A stretch of 64,000 nt of DNA from Enterobacteria phage Kha5h (NC_054905.1); one strand, 5' to 3'. Positions 40,960 through 56,604 are shown, counted from the stretch's first letter. The notes: generated from the letters alone by a model not told the origin. Made by a program: numbers and translations.

Positions 40960-41243
40960 CGGAATGAAATAAAAGCAGCAACTGAAGCAACTAAACTGTC
41001 TTCAATATAAACTTCAATTTTTACCGGAGCTTCTGACTCAAATTTACCTGTTACTACACCTTGGAAAATGCTTTCAGTCTGTTCTGGCTTTGAAAAATTT
41101 TCAGAAGGAAAAATTCCGAACTTTTTATCTGTTCCAAAAATTTTGATAAATTCATCATAAACTGCTTCATTAAAAGCGTTATCAGCAGGAATAACGCCTT
41201 CAACTACAAGTTCTTGACCTAAAAAGCGTAAAGAAGATTTCAT
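40953..41243 (-). CDS. Hypothetical protein (alt.-3-like)
   Basis: 96 aa ORF preceded on the - strand by the 54-bp early promoter cassette with GAGGA RBS. Confidence 0.65.
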   Translation of the reverse strand: MKSSLRFLGQELVVEGVIPADNAFNEAVYDEFIKIFGTDKKFGIFPSENFSKPEQTESIFQGVVTGKFESEAPVKIEVYIEDSLVASVAAFISFRK

Positions 41244-41250
41244 TTTGTGT

Positions 41251-41304
41251 TCCTCATGTTATGTCAGTAAGATTACTATAACACAACACGAGGGACTTGT
41301 AAAC
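41251..41304 (-). promoter_or_regulatory. Early promoter plus leader cassette, copy 1
   Basis: Reverse strand GTTTAC, 17-18 nt, TATAGT, then GAGGA RBS; 54-bp element repeated at 56551-56604. Confidence 0.65.
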
Positions 41305-43361
41305 TACATCTTGAACTTTTTAGACATTCCGTTGATGTTAACCAAAGAAGCCAAGATTTGAGAAACTTCGTTTTCCTCTTCTTTTGATTCTTCTACAAGG
41401 AATTGATTAAACCCAGCCATTGGACGAACTTCACCAGTTTCCATTAGATGATCGCCATCATATACCGATTCTTCTAATTGTTCAGAAGGAGGAACGATTG
41501 TGCCTTCGATTAGATACTTGTTATAAGCAGTTTCTTTCATCATGTACGTGCTTACTTTATTAATCTTCAACAAAATTCCACGCGGTAGAATAACTTCAGC
41601 TTCTGATGGAAATCCTGATAAATGACCTGGAACGATAACTTTGATTCGTTCAGCCCCTTTAATTACCATACCTACGCTAGTTTCAGCATCTTCATTAGCA
41701 TATGTAGAATGACTACCCATATGCATCAAATCTTCTGCATCAACGGAACCTTCTCCTTCACCAGAAAATACTGCGCCGGAATCATCTAGAGCCATATAGT
41801 TTTTACCATGCTCACCGAAGATATTTGGTTTAAGCGATGTGGATACGAAGTTCTTGAAATAGAACATTTTATTTTCAATATTATGACGTAAAGTTTTAAA
41901 GGTAACTTCTTGTCCGCGATAAAGCGTAGTTCCTGGAGGAAGAACTGAACCTTTAGCAAATGCAGAATCCAACGTCTCGATGTGCTTAATAGCTCGTTCC
42001 ATATATTCTTCACGGGTAGAATCTGGTTTACCCAAAAGGAACGAGTTCATTTCAACATATGAATCTGCACAATAATCTTCAATTACATCAGATTCAGCTT
42101 GAGTTAATCCTTTTGGAGTTACTTCAGTGCTTGCGTATTCATATGCCTGGGCAGCAGATTCATTAATCAATTTATAAATGCCATTCATTACAAATTGAAT
42201 AATAGCTGTCTTTTCATCTGGCGTAGCTTTAGAACCTTTAACTAAATCATTGATAATTTTCTTAATAACATCAAAGCTATTAGAAATATTAATATCAGCA
42301 AGATCGCTTAAAATTTTATCAGTTTTATAATCAAAGAATTCTTTATTCTTTAAATATTCTTGAGAACCTTGATATGTTATATCGCTCTGCAACTTGATAG
42401 ATGGATCACGTAAACGTGCATGGGCCAATGCAATATGATTTCGGAAGCTTTCTAGTTCATAATCGTTAGATTTAAAACTAGAAGCACTTCTCATACCACC
42501 GATAGCTCCTTTGCCGAAGTTGGAACCAATCTGAATAACGCCAGAGTTCATTGGTCCTTCTGCTTTATATACCGGAACTTTAGATTCAAACTCTTGATAT
42601 TTCTTAGCGGCGAAGCTATCGCCCTGGAGTGAGGCATCGACAGTAGAATATTGAGCTTGCGCTGCTAATCGACGACTAATTTTAGTTTTCTGAATAACAG
42701 CTTGATCCGTGCGCTTATCATTTTCTAAAGCAATAGAAGCAGCAACAGCAACAGCTTTAGGAACAGCATTACCTGTTTTAACATCTACATAAACATCACC
42801 AACCTTTGATTCAACTTTTGTGAATAACTCAGTTGAAATAGGAGGTACACCTGGAATGTCTTCTAAATTGGCATTTTTACGGTAAACCATAATATATGCG
42901 TACTTTTTATCATAGTCCCAGATTTCCTTTAAAAGAACATATCGACCTGCTCCTTTAGTACGTACTAAACGGTCAGCAATAACTTGCATTTGACGAGCTG
43001 CGCCATTTGTTTTACTCTTTAGTACGCGGAATAGGCATGCGTCGATTTTATACTGCTTCATTGTTTGAAGAGCAGTATCAAAAACAGCATTAATGACGCC
43101 AATTGGATTTCCACCCAAGTTTCTAAGCTTAACCAGCGATAATTTCTCGTTGACACCTATCATTACGATATGCATCATTTTATCGCCTGGCTTAACGTTT
43201 TTATTCGTATCACCACCAGAGGTGTATGTACAAAATCTAAATCCAGGAAGCACGCTTTCTTCGCCGGCTTGAATAGCAAAAATTTGTGGTATTTTATGCT
43301 TAGGATTTAAGTTAACAACCGGCGCCGAAGCGCCGTCAAATAATTCTGTAATAAGTTCCAT
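41304..43361 (-). CDS. Alt-family ADP-ribosyltransferase paralog
   Basis: 685 aa; N-terminus MELITELFD closely similar to the adjacent Alt ORF; C-terminal ART motifs YRGQ, FVSTSL, EAEVILPRG. Confidence 0.8.
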   Translation of the reverse strand: MELITELFDGASAPVVNLNPKHKIPQIFAIQAGEESVLPGFRFCTYTSGGDTNKNVKPGDKMMHIVMIGVNEKLSLVKLRNLGGNPIGVINAVFDTALQTMKQYKIDACLFRVLKSKTNGAARQMQVIADRLVRTKGAGRYVLLKEIWDYDKKYAYIMVYRKNANLEDIPGVPPISTELFTKVESKVGDVYVDVKTGNAVPKAVAVAASIALENDKRTDQAVIQKTKISRRLAAQAQYSTVDASLQGDSFAAKKYQEFESKVPVYKAEGPMNSGVIQIGSNFGKGAIGGMRSASSFKSNDYELESFRNHIALAHARLRDPSIKLQSDITYQGSQEYLKNKEFFDYKTDKILSDLADINISNSFDVIKKIINDLVKGSKATPDEKTAIIQFVMNGIYKLINESAAQAYEYASTEVTPKGLTQAESDVIEDYCADSYVEMNSFLLGKPDSTREEYMERAIKHIETLDSAFAKGSVLPPGTTLYRGQEVTFKTLRHNIENKMFYFKNFVSTSLKPNIFGEHGKNYMALDDSGAVFSGEGEGSVDAEDLMHMGSHSTYANEDAETSVGMVIKGAERIKVIVPGHLSGFPSEAEVILPRGILLKINKVSTYMMKETAYNKYLIEGTIVPPSEQLEESVYDGDHLMETGEVRPMAGFNQFLVEESKEEENEVSQILASLVNINGMSKKFKM

Positions 43362-49437: not shown

Positions 49438-49803
49438 TTAAATATCAAATTCATTAAGAACTACATCAAAGATTGCTTCAAGATGCTCAGGTTTAGCTCT
49501 GTTACTCAGAATATGACGAATCCAAGTTTTAACCAGAAGCTTGCGATTAGCACCATTCCAGCAAGGATGAGCCCCTAAATCGCGTTGACGGAAATCATCA
49601 TCCAGAGCAATTTTGAAGTTGGAACCTTCCATTGTGATTGAAACCGTGATACCGTTTTCAAATCGCATATAAACGTAATTAGGAGTCATATACTGCTCAA
49701 TTTCGCATACTGATCCATTTTGATGTTTCCAAAGGCAAATAGTATCAATAGAACCTGCAATACCATTAGAAACATATTTACGTTCAAAGTTGATGTAGTT
49801 CAT
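49438..49803 (-). CDS. Hypothetical protein
   Basis: 121 aa ORF preceded by a hairpin-promoter cassette and GGAGAA RBS. Confidence 0.6.
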   Translation of the reverse strand: MNYINFERKYVSNGIAGSIDTICLWKHQNGSVCEIEQYMTPNYVYMRFENGITVSITMEGSNFKIALDDDFRQRDLGAHPCWNGANRKLLVKTWIRHILSNRAKPEHLEAIFDVVLNEFDI

Positions 49804-49830
49804 TTTTATTCTCCAAGATGTTTAATTGCG

Positions 49831-49872
49831 GTACAGGTATATAATATCATATCCTGTACCAAAGTAAACAAT
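49831..49872 (-). promoter_or_regulatory. Hairpin-promoter cassette (early promoter with -10 inside a stem-loop)
   Basis: Reverse strand GTTTAC then inverted repeat GGTACAGG ... CCTGTACC enclosing TATTAT, followed by GGAGAA RBS. Confidence 0.55.
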
Positions 49873-50204
49873 TATTTTACTACTTTCCAGTGCTTCATGT
49901 CAAGTTTACCGACTTTTTTCATCTTCTCAATTAAGCGTTCTGCACGTTGGCGAGCTGTAACATAATGCCATTCACCTAATTCATTTTGTTCAATTTTTCC
50001 AACGATTACTGTATTCAATTCATAAATCCAACCAGTAAAGAAATTATGAACTTGAATTGTAAAGGTGAAATCTGTTCCCATACCTTCTGTTGTTTCTACT
50101 TCAATAATATCACCTTCAACTGCCATTAAGAACCACATAGTTTCATCATATTTACCATTGAAGCATTTAGTTTTAACTGCAGCGTTCAGATTAATCGTTT
50201 TCAT
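49872..50204 (-). CDS. Hypothetical protein
   Basis: 110 aa ORF preceded by GTTTAC...TAGTAT early-type promoter and AAGGAG RBS. Confidence 0.6.
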   Translation of the reverse strand: MKTINLNAAVKTKCFNGKYDETMWFLMAVEGDIIEVETTEGMGTDFTFTIQVHNFFTGWIYELNTVIVGKIEQNELGEWHYVTARQRAERLIEKMKKVGKLDMKHWKVVK

Positions 50205-50224
50205 TTTATTCTCCTTTGTTTGTG

Positions 50225-50265
50225 TAAGATAATACTATCACAAAGGAGCTATACTGTAAACAACT
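50225..50265 (-). promoter_or_regulatory. Early promoter with RBS-containing stem-loop
   Basis: Reverse strand GTTTAC, 17-18 nt, TAGTAT; flanking inverted repeat CTCCTTTGTG / CAAAGGAG covers the AAGGAG RBS. Confidence 0.5.
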
Positions 50266-50288
50266 TTATGCAATCTTTGGAAAATAAA

Positions 50289-50312
50289 AAAGGACTCCCG
50301 AAGGAGTCCTCA
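50289..50312 (-). terminator. Rho-independent terminator after the 30.9-like ORF
   Basis: Reverse strand AGGACTCC TTCG GGAGTCCT followed by TTTTTTATTTT. Confidence 0.8.
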
Positions 50313-50314
50313 AC

Positions 50315-50533
50315 TTATGCTTTCTGCTTACCAAAACGAGAAGCATCATCTCGAAGAACCGCACGTGCTCGGCGCATGATCTTCTCAACAGTTTGATTGA
50401 TACGAGAGTTCGACCCACGCTTGTAGCCAGCGCGTTTAGAATCACCAACTTTCTTTTCAACTGCTTTCTTTGCTTTAACTTGTTTTGCCATTATAAATTC
50501 TCTTTTAAATGAAAATGCAGGACTTATTGGCAT
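50315..50533 (-). CDS. Small lysine/arginine-rich basic protein (30.9-like); start ambiguous, 72 or 58 aa
   Basis: ORF with two candidate starts; strongly basic composition; followed by UUCG terminator. Confidence 0.55.
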   Translation of the reverse strand: MPISPAFSFKREFIMAKQVKAKKAVEKKVGDSKRAGYKRGSNSRINQTVEKIMRRARAVLRDDASRFGKQKA

Positions 50534-50736
50534 TGCCTGCGCAAGCCCTCAAGGGGAACATAGGTTTTTGGATATTTAACGACCAGGATAACCATAAACC
50601 CGTCATCATTCACATTCAAGAGGTACACCGTAAAACTGCCGGGGTCTTAAAACTATAATGATTCGCAAATCATTAATCAGACAGTTCGACGGCTCCTCGA
50701 TTTTAGCTCGCACTAAGGCAGTGAATCTCCAATAAA

Positions 50737-50985
50737 TTACTTCAGTGTTACCACAAAGTGACGAACTGCTTTTCGTGCAGCAGAAGCCAGAGGCTTAGCA
50801 TATTTAAGTTCATCTTTTTCCTGAAGCTCAGCAGCTAATGCAGTTTGAGCAGGATTCAGATGTTTGAAATAACGCAGGATTTCAAGAGCTTCGGCTTCAA
50901 CATCAATAGATGCGCCATAGTTTTCGTGACCATTATTCCATGCGTTTCGTTGCAGTTCAAGAGCGTGTTGTAATTGTTTAATCAT
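50737..50985 (-). CDS. rIII: Lysis inhibition accessory protein rIII
   Basis: 82 aa, T4 RIII length; position between gene 31 and the 30.x cluster. Confidence 0.8.
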   Translation of the reverse strand: MIKQLQHALELQRNAWNNGHENYGASIDVEAEALEILRYFKHLNPAQTALAAELQEKDELKYAKPLASAARKAVRHFVVTLK

Positions 50986-51124
50986 TTAAAAATTCTCGTT
51001 AGAGATTAAAACTCGGTAGTCACGTTCTTCTGAATTTCATCTTCTTTCGACAGATCTCTCAGTTGTAGACTACCACATAGAATTGTTCGGTTAACTTATT
51101 ATTCCGACACCCAATTCATATTAT

Positions 51125-51132
51125 TATTTATA
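51125..51132 (-). promoter_or_regulatory. TATAAATA late-promoter motif upstream of rIII
   Basis: Reverse-strand TATAAATA immediately after the gene 31 stop. Confidence 0.45.
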
Positions 51133-51468
51133 TCACTTATAAAGACACGGAATAGCTTTATAGTGACAGGTAACGAATTTTTGCTTAATTTCTTTTGGCT
51201 GCTTAAGACCCAGAGCTACAAAAGGATGTGGAACGTTTCGAATTTGACCAACTGGAAGAGAAGTCAAATCACCAACTTCGCAGAAACCTTCAGGAACATC
51301 AGGACCGACAGAGTGAACTACACACAGTTCAGGAACTTCACCTTGAACACGTTTACCGATGATAAGTCCTGATTCTGTAACTTCTTCATCACCGGCTTGT
51401 GCAGGTTCAGAAACTAAAATAACATATTCACCGACAGCACGAATTGGTAGCTGTTGTACTTCAGACAT
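51133..51468 (-). CDS. 31: Co-chaperonin gp31 (GroES analogue)
   Basis: 111 aa, T4 gp31 length; position before rIII. Confidence 0.88.
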
Positions 51469-51524
51469 CGTTTTTCCTTTTTGTTAACAGATGAATTAAT
51501 AATAACAAATAATTCTTAAAGCAT

Positions 51525-51833
51525 TTATTTACCAATAAATTGGAGTAAATGCTCAACTTTCATACCATTAACAGAAATCAATTTGTCAATAGAAAAACCT
51601 CGCCATGCACCAAGCTCAACATCAAATACTGGAATCATGTCAGTAGATTCTTTCCGAGTAGATTCAGTCAATTTACCAGTTTGCATGGTTGGCATAAAGT
51701 CTGCATCACGAGTACCTTTCATAGTACGAATAGTACCATCAGACTTTTCAAAAACTACGTTTGAAACACCCATGGACAATTTAGTTTTCAAAATTTCACG
51801 AATTGCTACTTTCTGCTCAGTTGTCAGTTTCAT
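51525..51833 (-). CDS. Hypothetical protein (31.1-like)
   Basis: 102 aa ORF. Confidence 0.6.
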   Translation of the reverse strand: MKLTTEQKVAIREILKTKLSMGVSNVVFEKSDGTIRTMKGTRDADFMPTMQTGKLTESTRKESTDMIPVFDVELGAWRGFSIDKLISVNGMKVEHLLQFIGK

Positions 51834-52070
51834 TTATTTACCTATTACAGTTTTAATATGAGTTGTTCCACGTTCTTTAAGGGTGGAAAGTAATTTTTGG
51901 CATTTTTCTAAATCAGATTTCCAACTATATGGTCTATCAATACTAGTCCAATCAGTTTTATAATACTGTTTCCATTTAGAGAAAAAATATTTCTTATACT
52001 CTACAGCAAATGAGATGTTCTCATTAGAATAAGAACTAATTGCTGTGAGCTTTACCAAACGAAATTTCAT
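51834..52070 (-). CDS. Hypothetical protein (31.2-like)
   Basis: 78 aa ORF contiguous with the cd stop. Confidence 0.55.
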   Translation of the reverse strand: MKFRLVKLTAISSYSNENISFAVEYKKYFFSKWKQYYKTDWTSIDRPYSWKSDLEKCQKLLSTLKERGTTHIKTVIGK

Positions 52071-52651
52071 TATTCACCACAGAATTCGTTGATATTTTCC
52101 CAGTTTAACTTATTCAAGTTTTTCTTAGGAACATTAAACACTTCAATACCTGCATTTCGCAGAATATCATCCCAACCAGGTTTATTTTTATCGTATGTTT
52201 CACAATAAACTAGCTTTTTAATACCAGATTGAGCTATCGCTTTTGCGCAATCCGGACAAGGAGAAAGTGTTACATACATAGTAGCACCTTCAATAGAAGA
52301 ACCATTTCGTGCAGCAAACAAAATTGCATTTAGTTCAGCATGAATTTCATTTTTAGATGACCATTCCGAGTGAGCACTACGATGTTCTTTCGCCAAGACA
52401 AAACGATCAGTTGAACCAAACGATACACATTCAGGCTTATGACCTTGAATGATAGTATGTTTAGGTTTATTCAACAACCAACCTTGCTCAGCAGCATAAT
52501 CACAGCAGTTCACACCACCAGCAGGTGAACCATTATATCCGGTAGAAATAATACGTCCATTCTTTTCAATTACTGCTCCTACTTTCCAGGAGCAACATTT
52601 TGATTCTTGTGATACTAAATATGCAATTTGAAGTACTGTACTCGCTTTCAT
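52070..52651 (-). CDS. cd: dCMP deaminase
   Basis: 193 aa; zinc-binding deaminase motifs HAE and PCPDC. Confidence 0.9.
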   Translation of the reverse strand: MKASTVLQIAYLVSQESKCCSWKVGAVIEKNGRIISTGYNGSPAGGVNCCDYAAEQGWLLNKPKHTIIQGHKPECVSFGSTDRFVLAKEHRSAHSEWSSKNEIHAELNAILFAARNGSSIEGATMYVTLSPCPDCAKAIAQSGIKKLVYCETYDKNKPGWDDILRNAGIEVFNVPKKNLNKLNWENINEFCGE

Positions 52652-52986
52652 TTCATAATCACCAGATAAGCAGATTTAGCAGTTTCAACACGATAAATTT
52701 CGTGACGAAGTTTAGTTATACTTTTAATAACAGAACTAATTATATTCTGCCCATCTTTAAAGCGGTTTTTCTTATCAATAAAAATTGCACCAGCCATCTT
52801 TTTGTGAAGCTCAACTGGATACTTCGTCACAATAATAGCATCATACACAGAAGGATGAATACTATTCACTAGAGTATCATTCATTAAAGTTATTCTAATG
52901 AACTGTGCTGTTTCAGAATCAAGCGCTCTATGATCGCCAGTATCATTTTCAAGACAATTATCAATTATATCAGTTAAATTCATCAT
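52648..52986 (-). CDS. Hypothetical protein (cd.1-like)
   Basis: 112 aa ORF, translationally coupled. Confidence 0.55.
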   Translation of the reverse strand: MMNLTDIIDNCLENDTGDHRALDSETAQFIRITLMNDTLVNSIHPSVYDAIIVTKYPVELHKKMAGAIFIDKKNRFKDGQNIISSVIKSITKLRHEIYRVETAKSAYLVIMK

Positions 52987-53219
52987 AGTACGCCATACAC
53001 CCTTTGTGCTTCAACTAATCCATCAAAATCCAGTTTAAGATGTGTTATTTGATCACCATCACCTGGATTCACAATTACTAATACTGAACGAGGAGTTTCG
53101 GTAATAACACGAACCGATGTTTCTGGAAATCGTTCAGAAACCTTATTTACCAATTCCTGAGCAAATAGTTTAACTTTTTCTTGGAATTCTTTAACAGTAA
53201 TTGGTTTTTCACTTAGCAT
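52983..53219 (-). CDS. Hypothetical protein (cd.2-like)
   Basis: 78 aa ORF preceded by hairpin-promoter cassette and GAGGAAA RBS. Confidence 0.55.
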   Translation of the reverse strand: MLSEKPITVKEFQEKVKLFAQELVNKVSERFPETSVRVITETPRSVLVIVNPGDGDQITHLKLDFDGLVEAQRVYGVL

Positions 53220-53242
53220 TTTGTTTTCCTCATTTGTTTTGG

Positions 53243-53277
53243 TAGAGCTATAATATCACAACTCTACCGTAAAGTAA
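53243..53277 (-). promoter_or_regulatory. Hairpin-promoter cassette
   Basis: Reverse strand GTTTAC then inverted repeat GGTAGAG ... CTCTACC enclosing TATTAT, followed by GAGGAAA RBS. Confidence 0.55.
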
Positions 53278-53281
53278 ACTG

Positions 53282-56049: not shown

Positions 56050-56546
56050 AAAGTTTTAATAACCTCTATAATATCGTCTTGAGAAAGACCGTTAATTAAA
56101 ATATGATGTTCAGCCGGAGATTTAGAAATTTTAAAGCATGCCTCAACATCTTCTGCCATATCCGATGCGCTACGATTTGGATTACTAATTCCAAGACGAT
56201 GTTTTCCCGTTAAAGGATTAACGATGATATAGCATTTACAGTTGTTAATATGAACATTAGGTTGAGTCTGATTAATGAACACATCACAATCATATTTCGC
56301 AAGCTGATTTTCTAAAAAGACTTTCATCTCCTCAACCGCATCAGGAAGCATATCACGGGCTTGCTCAAGACGACGATTTCGGTATTCTTTAATGGTCGTT
56401 TTCCGCTTGACTTGCTTAGCTAAATCTTTCTTAAGATCGGTGATATATCCAACTCGACGATTTCCTTTGAATACAGAAATCCCATCTGTAGTATCACCGT
56501 ATGCTTCAACGACCATTTCAGTAGTAATAAGCTGCAAATCCATCAT
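56040..56546 (-). CDS. alc: Probable Alc (host transcription unfolding/termination) protein; start may be the second Met
   Basis: 168 aa ORF (T4 Alc is 167 aa) between the spanin pair and rnlA; preceded by the 54-bp early promoter cassette. Confidence 0.6.
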   Translation of the reverse strand: MMDLQLITTEMVVEAYGDTTDGISVFKGNRRVGYITDLKKDLAKQVKRKTTIKEYRNRRLEQARDMLPDAVEEMKVFLENQLAKYDCDVFINQTQPNVHINNCKCYIIVNPLTGKHRLGISNPNRSASDMAEDVEACFKISKSPAEHHILINGLSQDDIIEVIKTLCN

Positions 56547-56550
56547 AAAG

Positions 56551-56604
56551 TCCTCATGTTATGTCAGTAAGACTACTATAACACAACACGAGGGACTTGT
56601 AAAC
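56551..56604 (-). promoter_or_regulatory. Early promoter plus leader cassette, copy 2
   Basis: 53 of 54 nt identical to the copy at 41251-41304; lies between the rnlA stop and the alc start. Confidence 0.65.

Follow-up and report, generated by a model that had tools for sequence, protein, structure and literature searches.

Five intergenic elements on the minus strand of Enterobacteria phage Kha5h (NC_054905.1; the window analysed is a stretch of 64,000 nucleotides) carry a GTTTAC promoter with an overlapping inverted repeat, and each would constitute a complete expression cassette in which the stop codon of one gene is followed by a strong sigma-70 early promoter, an SD and the ATG of the next gene. 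These elements are very probably early promoter cassettes of the promoter-early stem-loop (PeSL) type, the resemblance on which a preliminary description of this DNA had remarked; they match published PeSL elements (Arbiol 2010; Comeau 2014), which are already known and ordinary for T4-like phages. The explanation that we favour, with a probability of roughly 0.7 for the whole, is that selection acts on the hairpin as an RNA structure of the sense strand, one peculiar to a putative read-through isoform, that it would gate translation in one class of cassette (class II) and form a boundary in the other (class I), and that the cassettes would also act as patches of homology.

Location and anatomy of the cassettes

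The window is from a Tequatrovirus, with 97–99.5% identity to Tequatrovirus genomes and approximately 97% to T4, and its gene order matches that of T4, being syntenic with pseT-cd-31-rIII-30.x. The alt-30-cd-pseT-alc accessory region contains all five cassettes; the same promoter-pattern searches detected none in the approximately 40 kb of late genes within the window. A search of both strands of the 64 kb for GTTTAC-N16-19-TAnnAT gave three matches, each with an inverted repeat, and a hairpin is present at 5/5 GTTTAC promoters of the window. The preliminary description had given three of these, with coordinates accurate to 1–3 nt; the recurrence that it claimed is real, but its list was incomplete, as two more cassettes are located upstream of alc and alt.-3.

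Cassette P(30.7) (49801..49869, class I) extends from the −35 box GTTTAC (49869-49864) through the ATG (49803) of gene 30.7 (121 aa; 49438..49803, minus strand) and contains, in order, the 5′ arm GGTACAGG (49860-49853), a TGn motif with the −10 box TATTAT (49846-49841), the 3′ arm CCTGTACC (49837-49830) and the SD GGAG (49814-49811). Cassette P(cd.2) (53217..53279, class I), upstream of gene cd.2 (78 aa; 52983..53219, minus strand), has GTTTAC at 53279-53274 and the arms GGTAGAG (53268-53262) and CTCTACC (53247-53241) around a 14-nt loop (53261-53248) holding TGn and TATTAT (53255-53250), followed by the SD GAGG (53231-53228) and the ATG (53219). At both sites, re-reading bore out the earlier account of GTTTAC and an inverted repeat enclosing TATTAT ahead of an SD and a small ORF. 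Gene 30.8 (110 aa; 49872..50204, minus strand) has cassettes on both flanks. Its own, P(30.8) (50202..50261, class II), comprises GTTTAC (50261-50256), the 5′ arm CTCCTTTGT (50248-50240), the −10 box TAGTAT (50237-50232), the 3′ arm ACAAAGGAG (50219-50211) and the ATG (50204); the 3′ arm covers the SD, confirming that in the third example, placed near 50225-50265, the repeat extends over the RBS. The two additional cassettes are likewise on the minus strand and of class II. P(alc) (56544..56604) contains GTTTAC (56604-56599), a hairpin of −24.4 kcal/mol (56598-56548), the −10 box TATAGT (56580-56575), the SD GAGGA within the 3′ arm and the ATG (56546), and P(alt.-3) (41241..41304) contains GTTTAC (41304-41299), a hairpin (41296-41249), a −10 box at 41275 and the ATG (41243).

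In all five, the 5′ arm lies in the spacer between −35 and −10 and the 3′ arm beyond −10. The promoter boxes (TTTAC[AT], a spacer of 16–17, −10 hexamers TATTAT, TAGTAT or TATAGT, plus TGn) fit the T4-type consensus TTTACW-N17-TAYWAT in 5/5 cassettes, and on these motifs they would be expected to be active as promoters in this phage. The stop codon of the upstream gene is 0–3 nt before GTTTAC, and the SD and ATG are 21–31 nt past the presumed transcription start, taken as 7 nt after the −10 box. The cassettes at 30.7, 30.8 and cd.2 span the entire gap between two small early genes; promoters are annotated at all three of these sites in the Lutter record, and that of cd.2 is Pe133295 in the T4 GenBank record. 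Inverted repeats at these three promoters are 7–9 bp; the loops of the perfect repeats in the cassettes measure 8–37 nt, with tetraloops arising once the stems are extended by A-U and G·U pairs. The 25 nt upstream of the cassettes are inside the upstream coding sequence and have an AT content of 64–76%, compared with 63.8% in the window.

Frequency and stability of the stem-loops

RNA folds of the 30.7, 30.8 and cd.2 hairpins were −14.6 to −16.3 kcal/mol (z −4.1 to −5.8; −16.1 kcal/mol and z −5.8 for P(30.7)), with 0/200 shuffles as good, and folds of all five window cassettes ranged from −14.6 to −24.4 kcal/mol. Against shuffles of the spacer alone, each of the window's five GTTTAC promoters scored a z between −3.5 and −5.2. 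In T4, a perfect spacer-to-downstream stem of at least 7 bp was found at 14/41 such promoters versus 3.8 expected (p=1.1e-5), and z was below −2 against spacer-only shuffles at 19/41 (Wilcoxon p=1.3e-5); approximately half of T4 early promoters are without such a stem. Among randomly chosen positions in T4, 2.2% have a hexamer bracketed by a perfect repeat of 7 bp or more, and repeats of at least 6 bp occur at 6.7%. A generic sigma-70 consensus scan of the AT-rich region showed no excess (40 sites versus 48 expected).

Conservation and covariation in relatives

No variation was seen in 14 diverged orthologs at TTTAC of the −35 box, at the guanine of TGn or at TA...T of the −10 box. The position of the stem relative to the promoter, whose loss would have refuted the earlier proposal, is retained in at least eight genera, whereas the stem sequence is not retained. 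Six unrelated stems were identified at the orthologous 30.7 promoter (GGTACAGG, GGTGAGAGTC, GGTGTAGGAGT, GCTGATTGAGTGT, GGGTGGT and CTCCGTTGTAT), each with a matching 3′ arm and folding at −17 to −26 kcal/mol. At the alc promoter, five genera have five different spacer-to-SD stems, and Mosigvirus and Muldoonvirus have a small hairpin between −35 and −10 instead. In a formal covariation count over three families, which represent a limited number of lineages, 99% of cells were paired versus 32–49% with the partner slid, both sides had changed in 6/11 pairs, and the score was reached by 0/500 shuffles; such changes could reflect wholesale stem replacement by recombination rather than stepwise compensation. 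Most stems contain G·U pairs (in the 12-pair RNA stem of cd.2, 3/5 inner pairs are G·U), and the single-base changes seen within families in the main stems still allow G·U pairing, while some variants (L033, L046) weaken the stem. For promoters picked by a strand-symmetric criterion, the sense-strand fold is more stable than that of the antisense strand by 3.5 kcal/mol (p=0.0055); promoters without a hairpin showed no significant strand bias. Conserved position with differing sequence, compensatory changes, G·U pairs and sense-strand bias together point to RNA from upstream read-through, and on this comparative sequence evidence selection on the hairpin at the RNA level appears likely.

Cassettes at sites of gene gain and loss

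The preliminary description had also likened the cassettes to shuffling units, and comparison with relatives supports this. The alt.-3 and alc cassettes form a 54-nt direct repeat, 53/54 nt identical from GTTTAC to SD, whose copies are 15.3 kb apart and precede two unrelated genes. In RB6 and Lutter the start of an extra 528-bp ORF coincides precisely with the 3′ boundary of the cd.2 cassette, at its SD, and a Jiaodavirus-like contig (L054) differs from KP17 by a deletion of approximately 1.5 kb with its junction inside a cassette. In six other lineages, 30.8 is separated from the 30.7 cassette by one or two additional ORFs, and in JS98-like phages the cassettes flanking 30.8 have approximately 45 identical nt in common. 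Because the cassettes share approximately 50–80 nt of similar sequence, they could serve, as in the PeSL model, as homology patches where genes are gained, lost or swapped.

Predicted effects on translation

In the class II cassettes (30.8, alc and alt.-3) the 3′ arm contains the SD, and folding predicts that opening the RBS would cost 12.9–21.3 kcal/mol in read-through RNA versus 0.3–3.9 kcal/mol in the own transcript (12.9 versus 0.3 for 30.8; 20.5 versus 3.9 for alc), a predicted penalty of 13–19 kcal/mol restricted to read-through RNA. The own transcript would be unable to form the hairpin because the 5′ arm is upstream of its start site, and only read-through RNA would fold. Such RNA would not be translated, and expression of the gene would be confined to the time when its own early promoter is active. 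On balance these models favour a hairpin that gates translation in class II. At 30.8 there may be little read-through RNA to gate, because the cassette follows a strong intrinsic terminator 3′ of gene 30.9 (GAGGACTCC-TTCG-GGAGTCCTT then a T-run; 50290..50311, minus strand). Built from a GC stem with a TTCG loop and followed by a T-run, this terminator lies 29 nt upstream of the 30.8 promoter, is an element separate from the cassette hairpins, and is conserved in relatives and annotated as a terminator in the Lutter and Marfa records.

In class I (30.7 and cd.2) the stem encloses only the −10 box and the start site and leaves the RBS free. Predicted RBS opening in read-through RNA is 1.7–2.7 kcal/mol and the penalty only 0.8–1.0 kcal/mol; therefore the gating logic fails to explain 30.7 and cd.2. 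The class I stem might instead be an intercistronic boundary hairpin, located where the upstream message ends, that stops 3′ exonucleases and/or attenuates read-through there; every ORF flanked by cassettes would then be an insulated unit. This boundary or stabiliser role is a guess that we offer tentatively. A stabiliser need not straddle the start site, and the overlap may simply result from scarce intergenic space. T4 RegB cleaves GGAG in early SDs (PMC3014915).

A more far-reaching reading, which we hold with less than even confidence, is that the stem-loops of T4-type early promoter cassettes are conserved, covarying RNA switches acting only in read-through transcripts, and neither terminators nor recombination signals. 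In that case, translation of a large fraction of T4 early genes, alc, regB and those of ipII type included, would require a transcript from the gene's own immediate-early promoter, the variant enclosing only −10 would have a further RNA function, and the ‘promoter inside a hairpin’ rule would extend from late genes to the early programme in the Straboviridae genera sampled.

Alternative explanations

The alternative that survives best, although we consider it unlikely, is that proposed by the PeSL authors, in which the stems terminate or attenuate transcription by RNA polymerase that comes in from upstream, so that the cassette ends the upstream transcript and restarts transcription. The stem-loop of RB49 PeSL211/210 is reported to have caused a drop in lacZ expression comparable to that given by rrnB T1 (PMC2839356). 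The window stems directly follow the upstream stop codon and are stable as RNA, and a terminator or attenuator overlaps with the role proposed above for class I. However, a U-run follows 0/5 stems (the following sequences include GCAATTAAAC, AAAACAAATG and TTATGATG), and without a U-tract the stems are not shown to be terminators. A terminator scan flagged only 50311-50290 in the region on the minus strand and 0/5 cassette stems; after 30.9, where a real terminator is needed, the phage has one alongside the hairpin of the cassette. The frequent coincidence of the 3′ arm with the SD is likewise left unexplained by termination.

Less probable still is that the repeats act in DNA, as extruded hairpins or cruciforms that are cut or promote template switching, making them recombination hot spots whose RNA fold is incidental. 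The indels and the duplicated cassette do map to cassette edges, and an old T4 clone (X03007) has the exact 14-nt cd.2 promoter loop inverted, as an arm-mediated DNA flip would give. Yet the observed junctions are at the SD/ATG or the −35 edge rather than in the stem, and plain homology between cassettes suffices for T4 recombination. G·U pairs and a sense-strand bias are unexpected for a cruciform, in which both strands must pair, and in DNA form the stems of alc and cd.2 are weak (for cd.2, −5.0 kcal/mol versus −16.3 kcal/mol for the RNA hairpin). Loops of 8–37 nt also disfavour extrusion.

We regard as very improbable an operator at which a dimeric phage repressor would bind over −10 and shut off early promoters. 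A dyad centred on −10 resembles classical operators, and the mechanism of early-promoter shut-off has been described as not completely understood (PMC3014915), but the arms are wholly different among promoters of one genome and among orthologs in sequence, in length (6–14 bp) and in their loops (8–37 nt). Only complementarity is conserved, with G·U tolerated, and no single protein could read such arms. Equally improbable are repeats without function, arising by chance or as a mutational by-product (template-switch ‘perfection’ of quasi-palindromes): the absence of a sigma-70 excess and the frequency of 6-bp repeats at random sites are in keeping with this, but it is refuted computationally by the enrichment (p=1e-5; 5/5 in the window), by the position conserved with differing sequences across genera and by the strand asymmetry.

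Comparison with known systems

In the original account (PMC2839356), a PeSL combines an early promoter with a stem-loop, which most often occupies the −35/−10 spacer or overlaps the −10 box; an SD and a start codon follow. The modules sit in intergenic gaps of plastic regions and fall into five positional stem-loop subclasses. A somewhat AT-rich upstream region and the excision of mini-circles by recombination between adjacent cassettes also belong to the PeSL description. A later extension of the class to the PST/T4 pair uses the promoter consensus given above (PMC4122927). With the PeSLs of RB49/phi1 (Arbiol et al. 2010) and of PST/T4 and nt-1/KVP40 (Comeau et al. 2014), the window cassettes share the intergenic promoter/stem-loop/SD/start module, its repetition through plastic regions beside small ORFs of unknown function, and its occurrence at indel borders between close relatives. 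They differ in that RB49 stems are rich in G/C tracts, one having been shown to terminate, whereas the window stems are of mixed sequence, contain G·U and are without a U-tract. The PST legend places the stems ‘just upstream of the promoter’, while the 5′ arm in the window is inside the spacer. The published work cited above presents the stem as a terminator or recombination motif, without covariation, RNA strand bias or an RBS-covering subclass.

For T4 e, soc, 49 and I-TevI, it is established that an SD-sequestering helix gates translation, and gating by a hairpin is also reviewed for I-TevI/II/III and segB of T4; the documented cases all use late promoters, delaying expression to late infection (PMC3014915, PMC2988022). 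In these genes the proximal promoter sits within the sequence that specifies the helix's 5′ strand, and the geometry of class II is identical; long upstream transcripts fold and are untranslated, proximal transcripts without the 5′ strand are translated, and the same logic is proposed here for class II. Unlike in those genes, the window promoters are early sigma-70 promoters with a −35 box. Class II would thus be predicted to limit translation to the first minutes, possibly the same mechanism with opposite timing. The class I cassettes at 30.7 and cd.2 differ from these T4 genes in having the RBS outside the helix.

Intrinsic terminators are likewise stable RNA hairpins soon after a stop codon, from which the cassette stems differ by their large loops and lack of a U-tract. 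The REP elements of E. coli operons are intercistronic stabiliser hairpins that form a sequence family. Like them, the cassettes place a hairpin without terminator features at the 3′ end of the upstream cistron, where it could block 3′ exonucleases after downstream cleavage; unlike REP families, the cassette stems are diverse in sequence.

Hairpin-promoter cassettes of the window

The 3.9-kb region around the cassettes matched at least 969 phage records, the top match being Escherichia phage vB_EcoM-S1P5QW (99.5%), with T4-family genomes at ~97%. Gene order on the - strand, here the direction of T4 early transcription, was the same as in T4 (pseT, cd.5-cd.3, cd.2, cd.1, cd, 31.2, 31.1, 31, rIII, 30.9, 30.8, 30.7, 30.6 onwards). 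Three hairpin-promoter sites had been proposed in a preliminary description, and all three were present on the - strand, with coordinates right within 1–3 nt. In the 30.7 promoter, GTTTAC (49869-49864) was followed by the 5' arm GGTACAGG (49860-49853), a TGA-TATTAT element ending at 49841, the 3' arm CCTGTACC (49837-49830), GGAG (49814-49811) and the ATG at 49803. The cd.2 promoter, which carries a name (Pe133295) in the T4 GenBank record, consisted of GTTTAC (53279-53274), GGTAGAG (53268-53262), a 14-nt loop including TGA-TATTAT, CTCTACC (53247-53241) and the ATG at 53219. The repeat of the 30.8 promoter had been described as covering the ribosome-binding site (RBS), and its 3' arm is indeed the Shine-Dalgarno sequence (SD): GTTTAC (50261-50256), CTCCTTTGT (50248-50240), TAGTAT, ACAAAGGAG (50219-50211) and ATG (50204). 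The list was incomplete, having missed a canonical terminator (50311-50290, 29 nt upstream of the 30.8 promoter) and two GTTTAC promoters with G·U-rich hairpins, before alc (at 56604) and alt.-3 (at 41304).

A generic sigma-70 consensus scan was uninformative (40 sites vs 48 expected, the real sites buried among others), and a T4-specific pattern was therefore used. The strict pattern GTTTAC-N16-19-TAnnAT occurred just three times in the entire window on both strands, each time with a 7–9 bp repeat bracketing the -10. As RNA, A-U and G·U pairs prolonged the three originally described stems into the loop, giving 12–14 pairs and -16 kcal/mol (z ~-5.5; 0/200 shuffles equally stable). The alc and alt.-3 hairpins, invisible to a perfect-repeat search, folded at -23 to -24 kcal/mol. 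When only the spacer was shuffled, all five GTTTAC promoters of the window gave z of -3.5 to -5.2. The hairpin cassettes are real and non-random.

An Rfam search returned nothing over threshold; weak matches to Atu_C8 (30.9 terminator) and mir-126 (30.7 hairpin) were dismissed as chance matches to hairpins. Two non-coding gaps nearby, rIII-30.9 (50534-50736, ~200 nt) and 31-rIII (50986-51132, ~147 nt), are unusually long for a T4-like genome and had no Rfam match; phage Lutter has ~150 nt more in the rIII-30.9 gap. Gene 30.9 with its terminator retained ~87% DNA identity even in Klebsiella phages otherwise sharing little of the region.

Frequency among T4 early promoters

The T4 genome was assembled, and all 41 candidate promoters with GTTTAC[AT] on its early strand were scored for perfect stems of 7 bp or more that pair the spacer (5' arm) with any stretch between the -10 and approximately the start codon (3' arm). 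Such stems were found in 14 of the 41, against 3.8 expected from 20,000 random positions with the same geometry (p=1.1e-5), and stems of at least 8 bp in 9 (1.2 expected). In folding energy, 19/41 scored z<-2 relative to spacer-only shuffles, and the average gain was 4.7 kcal/mol (Wilcoxon p=1.3e-5). The hairpin design is thus present in roughly a third to half of T4 early promoters and absent from the remainder.

Further spacer-to-SD stems, scoring z of -4 to -5 relative to spacer shuffles, were seen at T4 promoters 62796 (regB, TCCTCTT/AAGAGGA), 65412 (ipII, TCTCCTGTAG/CTACAGGAGA), 53942, 8217, 7214 and 166806. C/T-rich runs (TCC, CTCC) were frequent directly 3' of the -35 and may in part reflect promoter consensus instead of an anti-SD.

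Conservation and covariation of the stems

Single-protein IMG/VR searches gave close relatives only, and a wider set was obtained by protein alignment and tblastn against a phage collection. The region upstream of gp30.7 homologs was sampled at at least 40 loci covering Tequatrovirus, Mosigvirus, Dhakavirus, Gaprivervirus, Winklervirus, Marfavirus, Jiaodavirus, Kanagawavirus, Karamvirus and Gelderlandvirus. Among these orthologs the -35, the G of TGn and the TA...T of the -10 were invariant, and a stem beginning 3–5 nt past the -35 was present throughout, its sequence being lineage-specific. Variants included GGTACAGG/CCTGTACC, GGTGAGAGTC/GACTCTCACC, GGTGTAGGAGT/ACTCTTACACC, GCTGATTGAGTGT/ACACTCAATCAGC, GGGTGGT/ACCACCC and, in Karamvirus and Gelderlandvirus, CTCCGTTGTAT/ATACAACGGAG, where the SD itself forms the 3' arm; one relative carried CTCCGAGGTTT/AAACCTCGGAG, a full compensatory swap. 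Folds ranged from -17 to -26 kcal/mol, three variants excepted.

MAFFT alignment of all orthologs with stems enclosing only the -10 and start site (class I) anchored on the promoter boxes and did not bring the stems of different families into the same columns, so that the formal pair count was limited to three families sharing register. Within these, 99% of cells were paired, against 32–49% with partners slid by 1–3 columns; both sides had changed in 6 of 11 pairs, and the covariation score was 0.50 vs 0.19 in shuffles, none of 500 reaching it. At the alc promoter, five genera had five different spacer-to-SD stems (for example, CCGTTTGG/CCAAACGG vs CCATTTGG/CCAAATGG), while Mosigvirus and Muldoonvirus had instead a small hairpin between -35 and -10. 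The position of the repeats is conserved and is kept up by compensatory change, so the expectation that they hold their place relative to the promoter in related genomes was borne out at the 30.7 and alc promoters.

Probable selection of the stems as RNA

Three lines of evidence point to selection of the stems as sense-strand RNA. Most stems contain G·U pairs, and the single-base variants of main stems within families were G·U compatible (loci L033, L045, L053 and L056 from relatives), as were the cd.2 stem variant of Mosigvirus and a 30.8 stem variant in four T4-like contigs; the single disruptive change lay in the inner extension of the L033 stem. The cd.2 hairpin has a predicted stability of -16.3 kcal/mol as RNA vs -5.0 as DNA. 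Choosing promoters by sense-strand folding would bias a comparison of strands, and T4 promoters were therefore selected in a strand-symmetric way, by a perfect Watson-Crick stem of 7 bp or longer. In this set the sense strand folded 3.5 kcal/mol better than the reverse complement (10 of 14 promoters, p=0.0055). No significant strand bias was seen in hairpin-less T4 promoters. Neither a cruciform nor a protein reading the dyad would yield this sense-strand asymmetry.

The cd.2 arms have a further record. A T4 GenBank note, 'inverted complement of previously reported sequence; corrects the early promoter Pe133295', spans exactly the 14-nt hairpin loop (window 53248-53261, T4 133300-133313). The 1980s T4 clone concerned (X03007.1) reads GGTAGAG-CTATAATATCACAA-CTCTACC, so that a TATAAT comes to lie just 13 nt from the -35. 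The reversed loop may be an error of sequencing or a genuine inversion through the arms by which a toxic promoter was silenced in the course of cloning; outside that clone, no natural phage with the inverted loop was found above 93% identity.

Two classes of cassette

The 5' arm lay between -35 and -10 in every cassette, ahead of the cassette's own transcription start, which was assumed to be ~7 nt past the -10; a literature search found no T4 map of transcription starts or 3' ends. The cassette's own transcript would therefore be without the 5' arm, and only RNA entering from an upstream promoter (read-through RNA) can fold. The energy needed to open the RBS (-18 to +4), computed for both isoforms, separates two classes. 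For read-through RNA vs own transcript it was 20.5 vs 3.9 kcal/mol at alc, 21.3 vs 2.3 at alt.-3 and 12.9 vs 0.3 at 30.8, where the 3' arm holds the SD (class II), and 1.7 vs 0.6 at cd.2 and 2.7 vs 1.8 at 30.7 (class I). This modelling shows a predicted sequestration of the RBS solely in read-through RNA for three of the five cassettes. As the internal promoter of class II is early, translation would take place only during the few minutes in which early promoters fire.

RBS occlusion was dropped as an explanation of class I because of the low opening costs at 30.7 and cd.2. Nor are the stems canonical terminators, since none has a U-tract. As a working reading, the class I stem may be a hairpin that bounds the upstream message, blocking 3' exonucleases and/or working as an attenuator. 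The upstream stop codon lies 0–3 nt from the -35, so any intercistronic hairpin must overlap the promoter, and for class I lack of intergenic room explains the overlap more simply. At the orthologous 30.7 promoter, stems of class I and class II substitute for each other, which hints at a common role.

Cassettes as modules

The alc (56551-56604) and alt.-3 (41251-41304) cassettes form a direct repeat, 53/54 nt identical and 15.3 kb apart, with homology beginning exactly at GTTTAC and stopping at the SD, and with dissimilar flanks; T4 has the repeat too, at 123092 and 136335. Comparison of window 41304-41323 with T4 123092-123450 showed that in the window alt (685 aa) runs directly into the alt.-3 cassette, its TAG stop overlapping GTTTAC, and that homology to T4 ends ~20 nt upstream of this GTTTAC. 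In T4 the partial alt duplicates alt.-1 and alt.-2 lie between alt and the cassette.

RB6 and Lutter, ~97.7% identical to the window across the cd.2 region, share the cd.2 cassette through AAATGAGGAAA and then carry an extra 528-bp ORF (175 aa) ahead of cd.2, corresponding to window ~53219 (L063 of RB6, 382-909; L064 of Lutter, 379-906). A distant homolog occupies the equivalent place in Gaprivervirus PSD2001, behind a promoter with another type of hairpin (CACCA-CGGA-TGGTG between -35 and -10). The Jiaodavirus-like IMG/VR contig L054 lacks 30.8 and two ORFs (~1.5 kb) relative to Klebsiella phage KP17. Comparison of L054 583-705 with L028 1-122 and 1514-1640 showed a 30.8-type cassette fused directly to 30.7, placing the junction inside the cassette; the fused hairpin is weak (-8.8 kcal/mol). 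JS98-like phages have ~45 identical nt common to the cassettes either side of 30.8, and in six other lineages one or two additional ORFs separate 30.8 from the 30.7 cassette. Cassette boundaries are a practical guide to sites of gene gain and loss in T4-like genomes.

Comparison with known systems

Promoter-early stem-loops (PeSLs) were described in RB49/phi1 as promoter, stem-loop and SD, with stem-loops mostly between -35 and -10 or over the -10, and promoter and terminator activity for examples, as well as excised circles, were shown (Arbiol et al., 2010; PMC2839356). PeSLs in PST/T4 have the consensus TTTACW-N17-TAYWAT (Comeau et al., 2014; PMC4122927). Analogues based on T4 early promoters, with AT-rich stems at internal-protein loci, are attributed to Repoila et al. 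(1994) in the account of Arbiol et al. (2010; PMC2839356), and the T4 scan recovered such sites at 65412, 65798, 66497 and 73938. The elements fit these descriptions, and the earlier reading of them as PeSL modules of T4-type genomes was right. Given this literature and the named cd.2 promoter of the T4 record, they are already known, being standard early promoters of T4 and PeSL-type cassettes of the published kind, and their presence in a T4-like window is ordinary. To our knowledge, neither Arbiol et al. (2010) nor Comeau et al. (2014) states the evidence for RNA selection (covariation, strand bias), the rule that the 5' arm is always in the spacer, or an RBS-covering subclass at early promoters. 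What could matter is stem function rather than cassette presence: if confirmed, selection of the stems as RNA and RBS sequestration limited to read-through RNA would provide a simple rule for the individual timing of dozens of small early genes despite long polycistronic transcription, and would aid expression prediction for many unknown accessory genes of T4-like phages. A promoter inside a hairpin, such that the RBS is free in no transcripts but those of this promoter, is established for T4 e, soc, 49, I-TevI-III and segB, all late genes according to one review (PMC3014915, PMC2988022). Class II cassettes are predicted from sequence to share this promoter-in-hairpin design, but their internal promoter is early, whereas in the known cases it is late.
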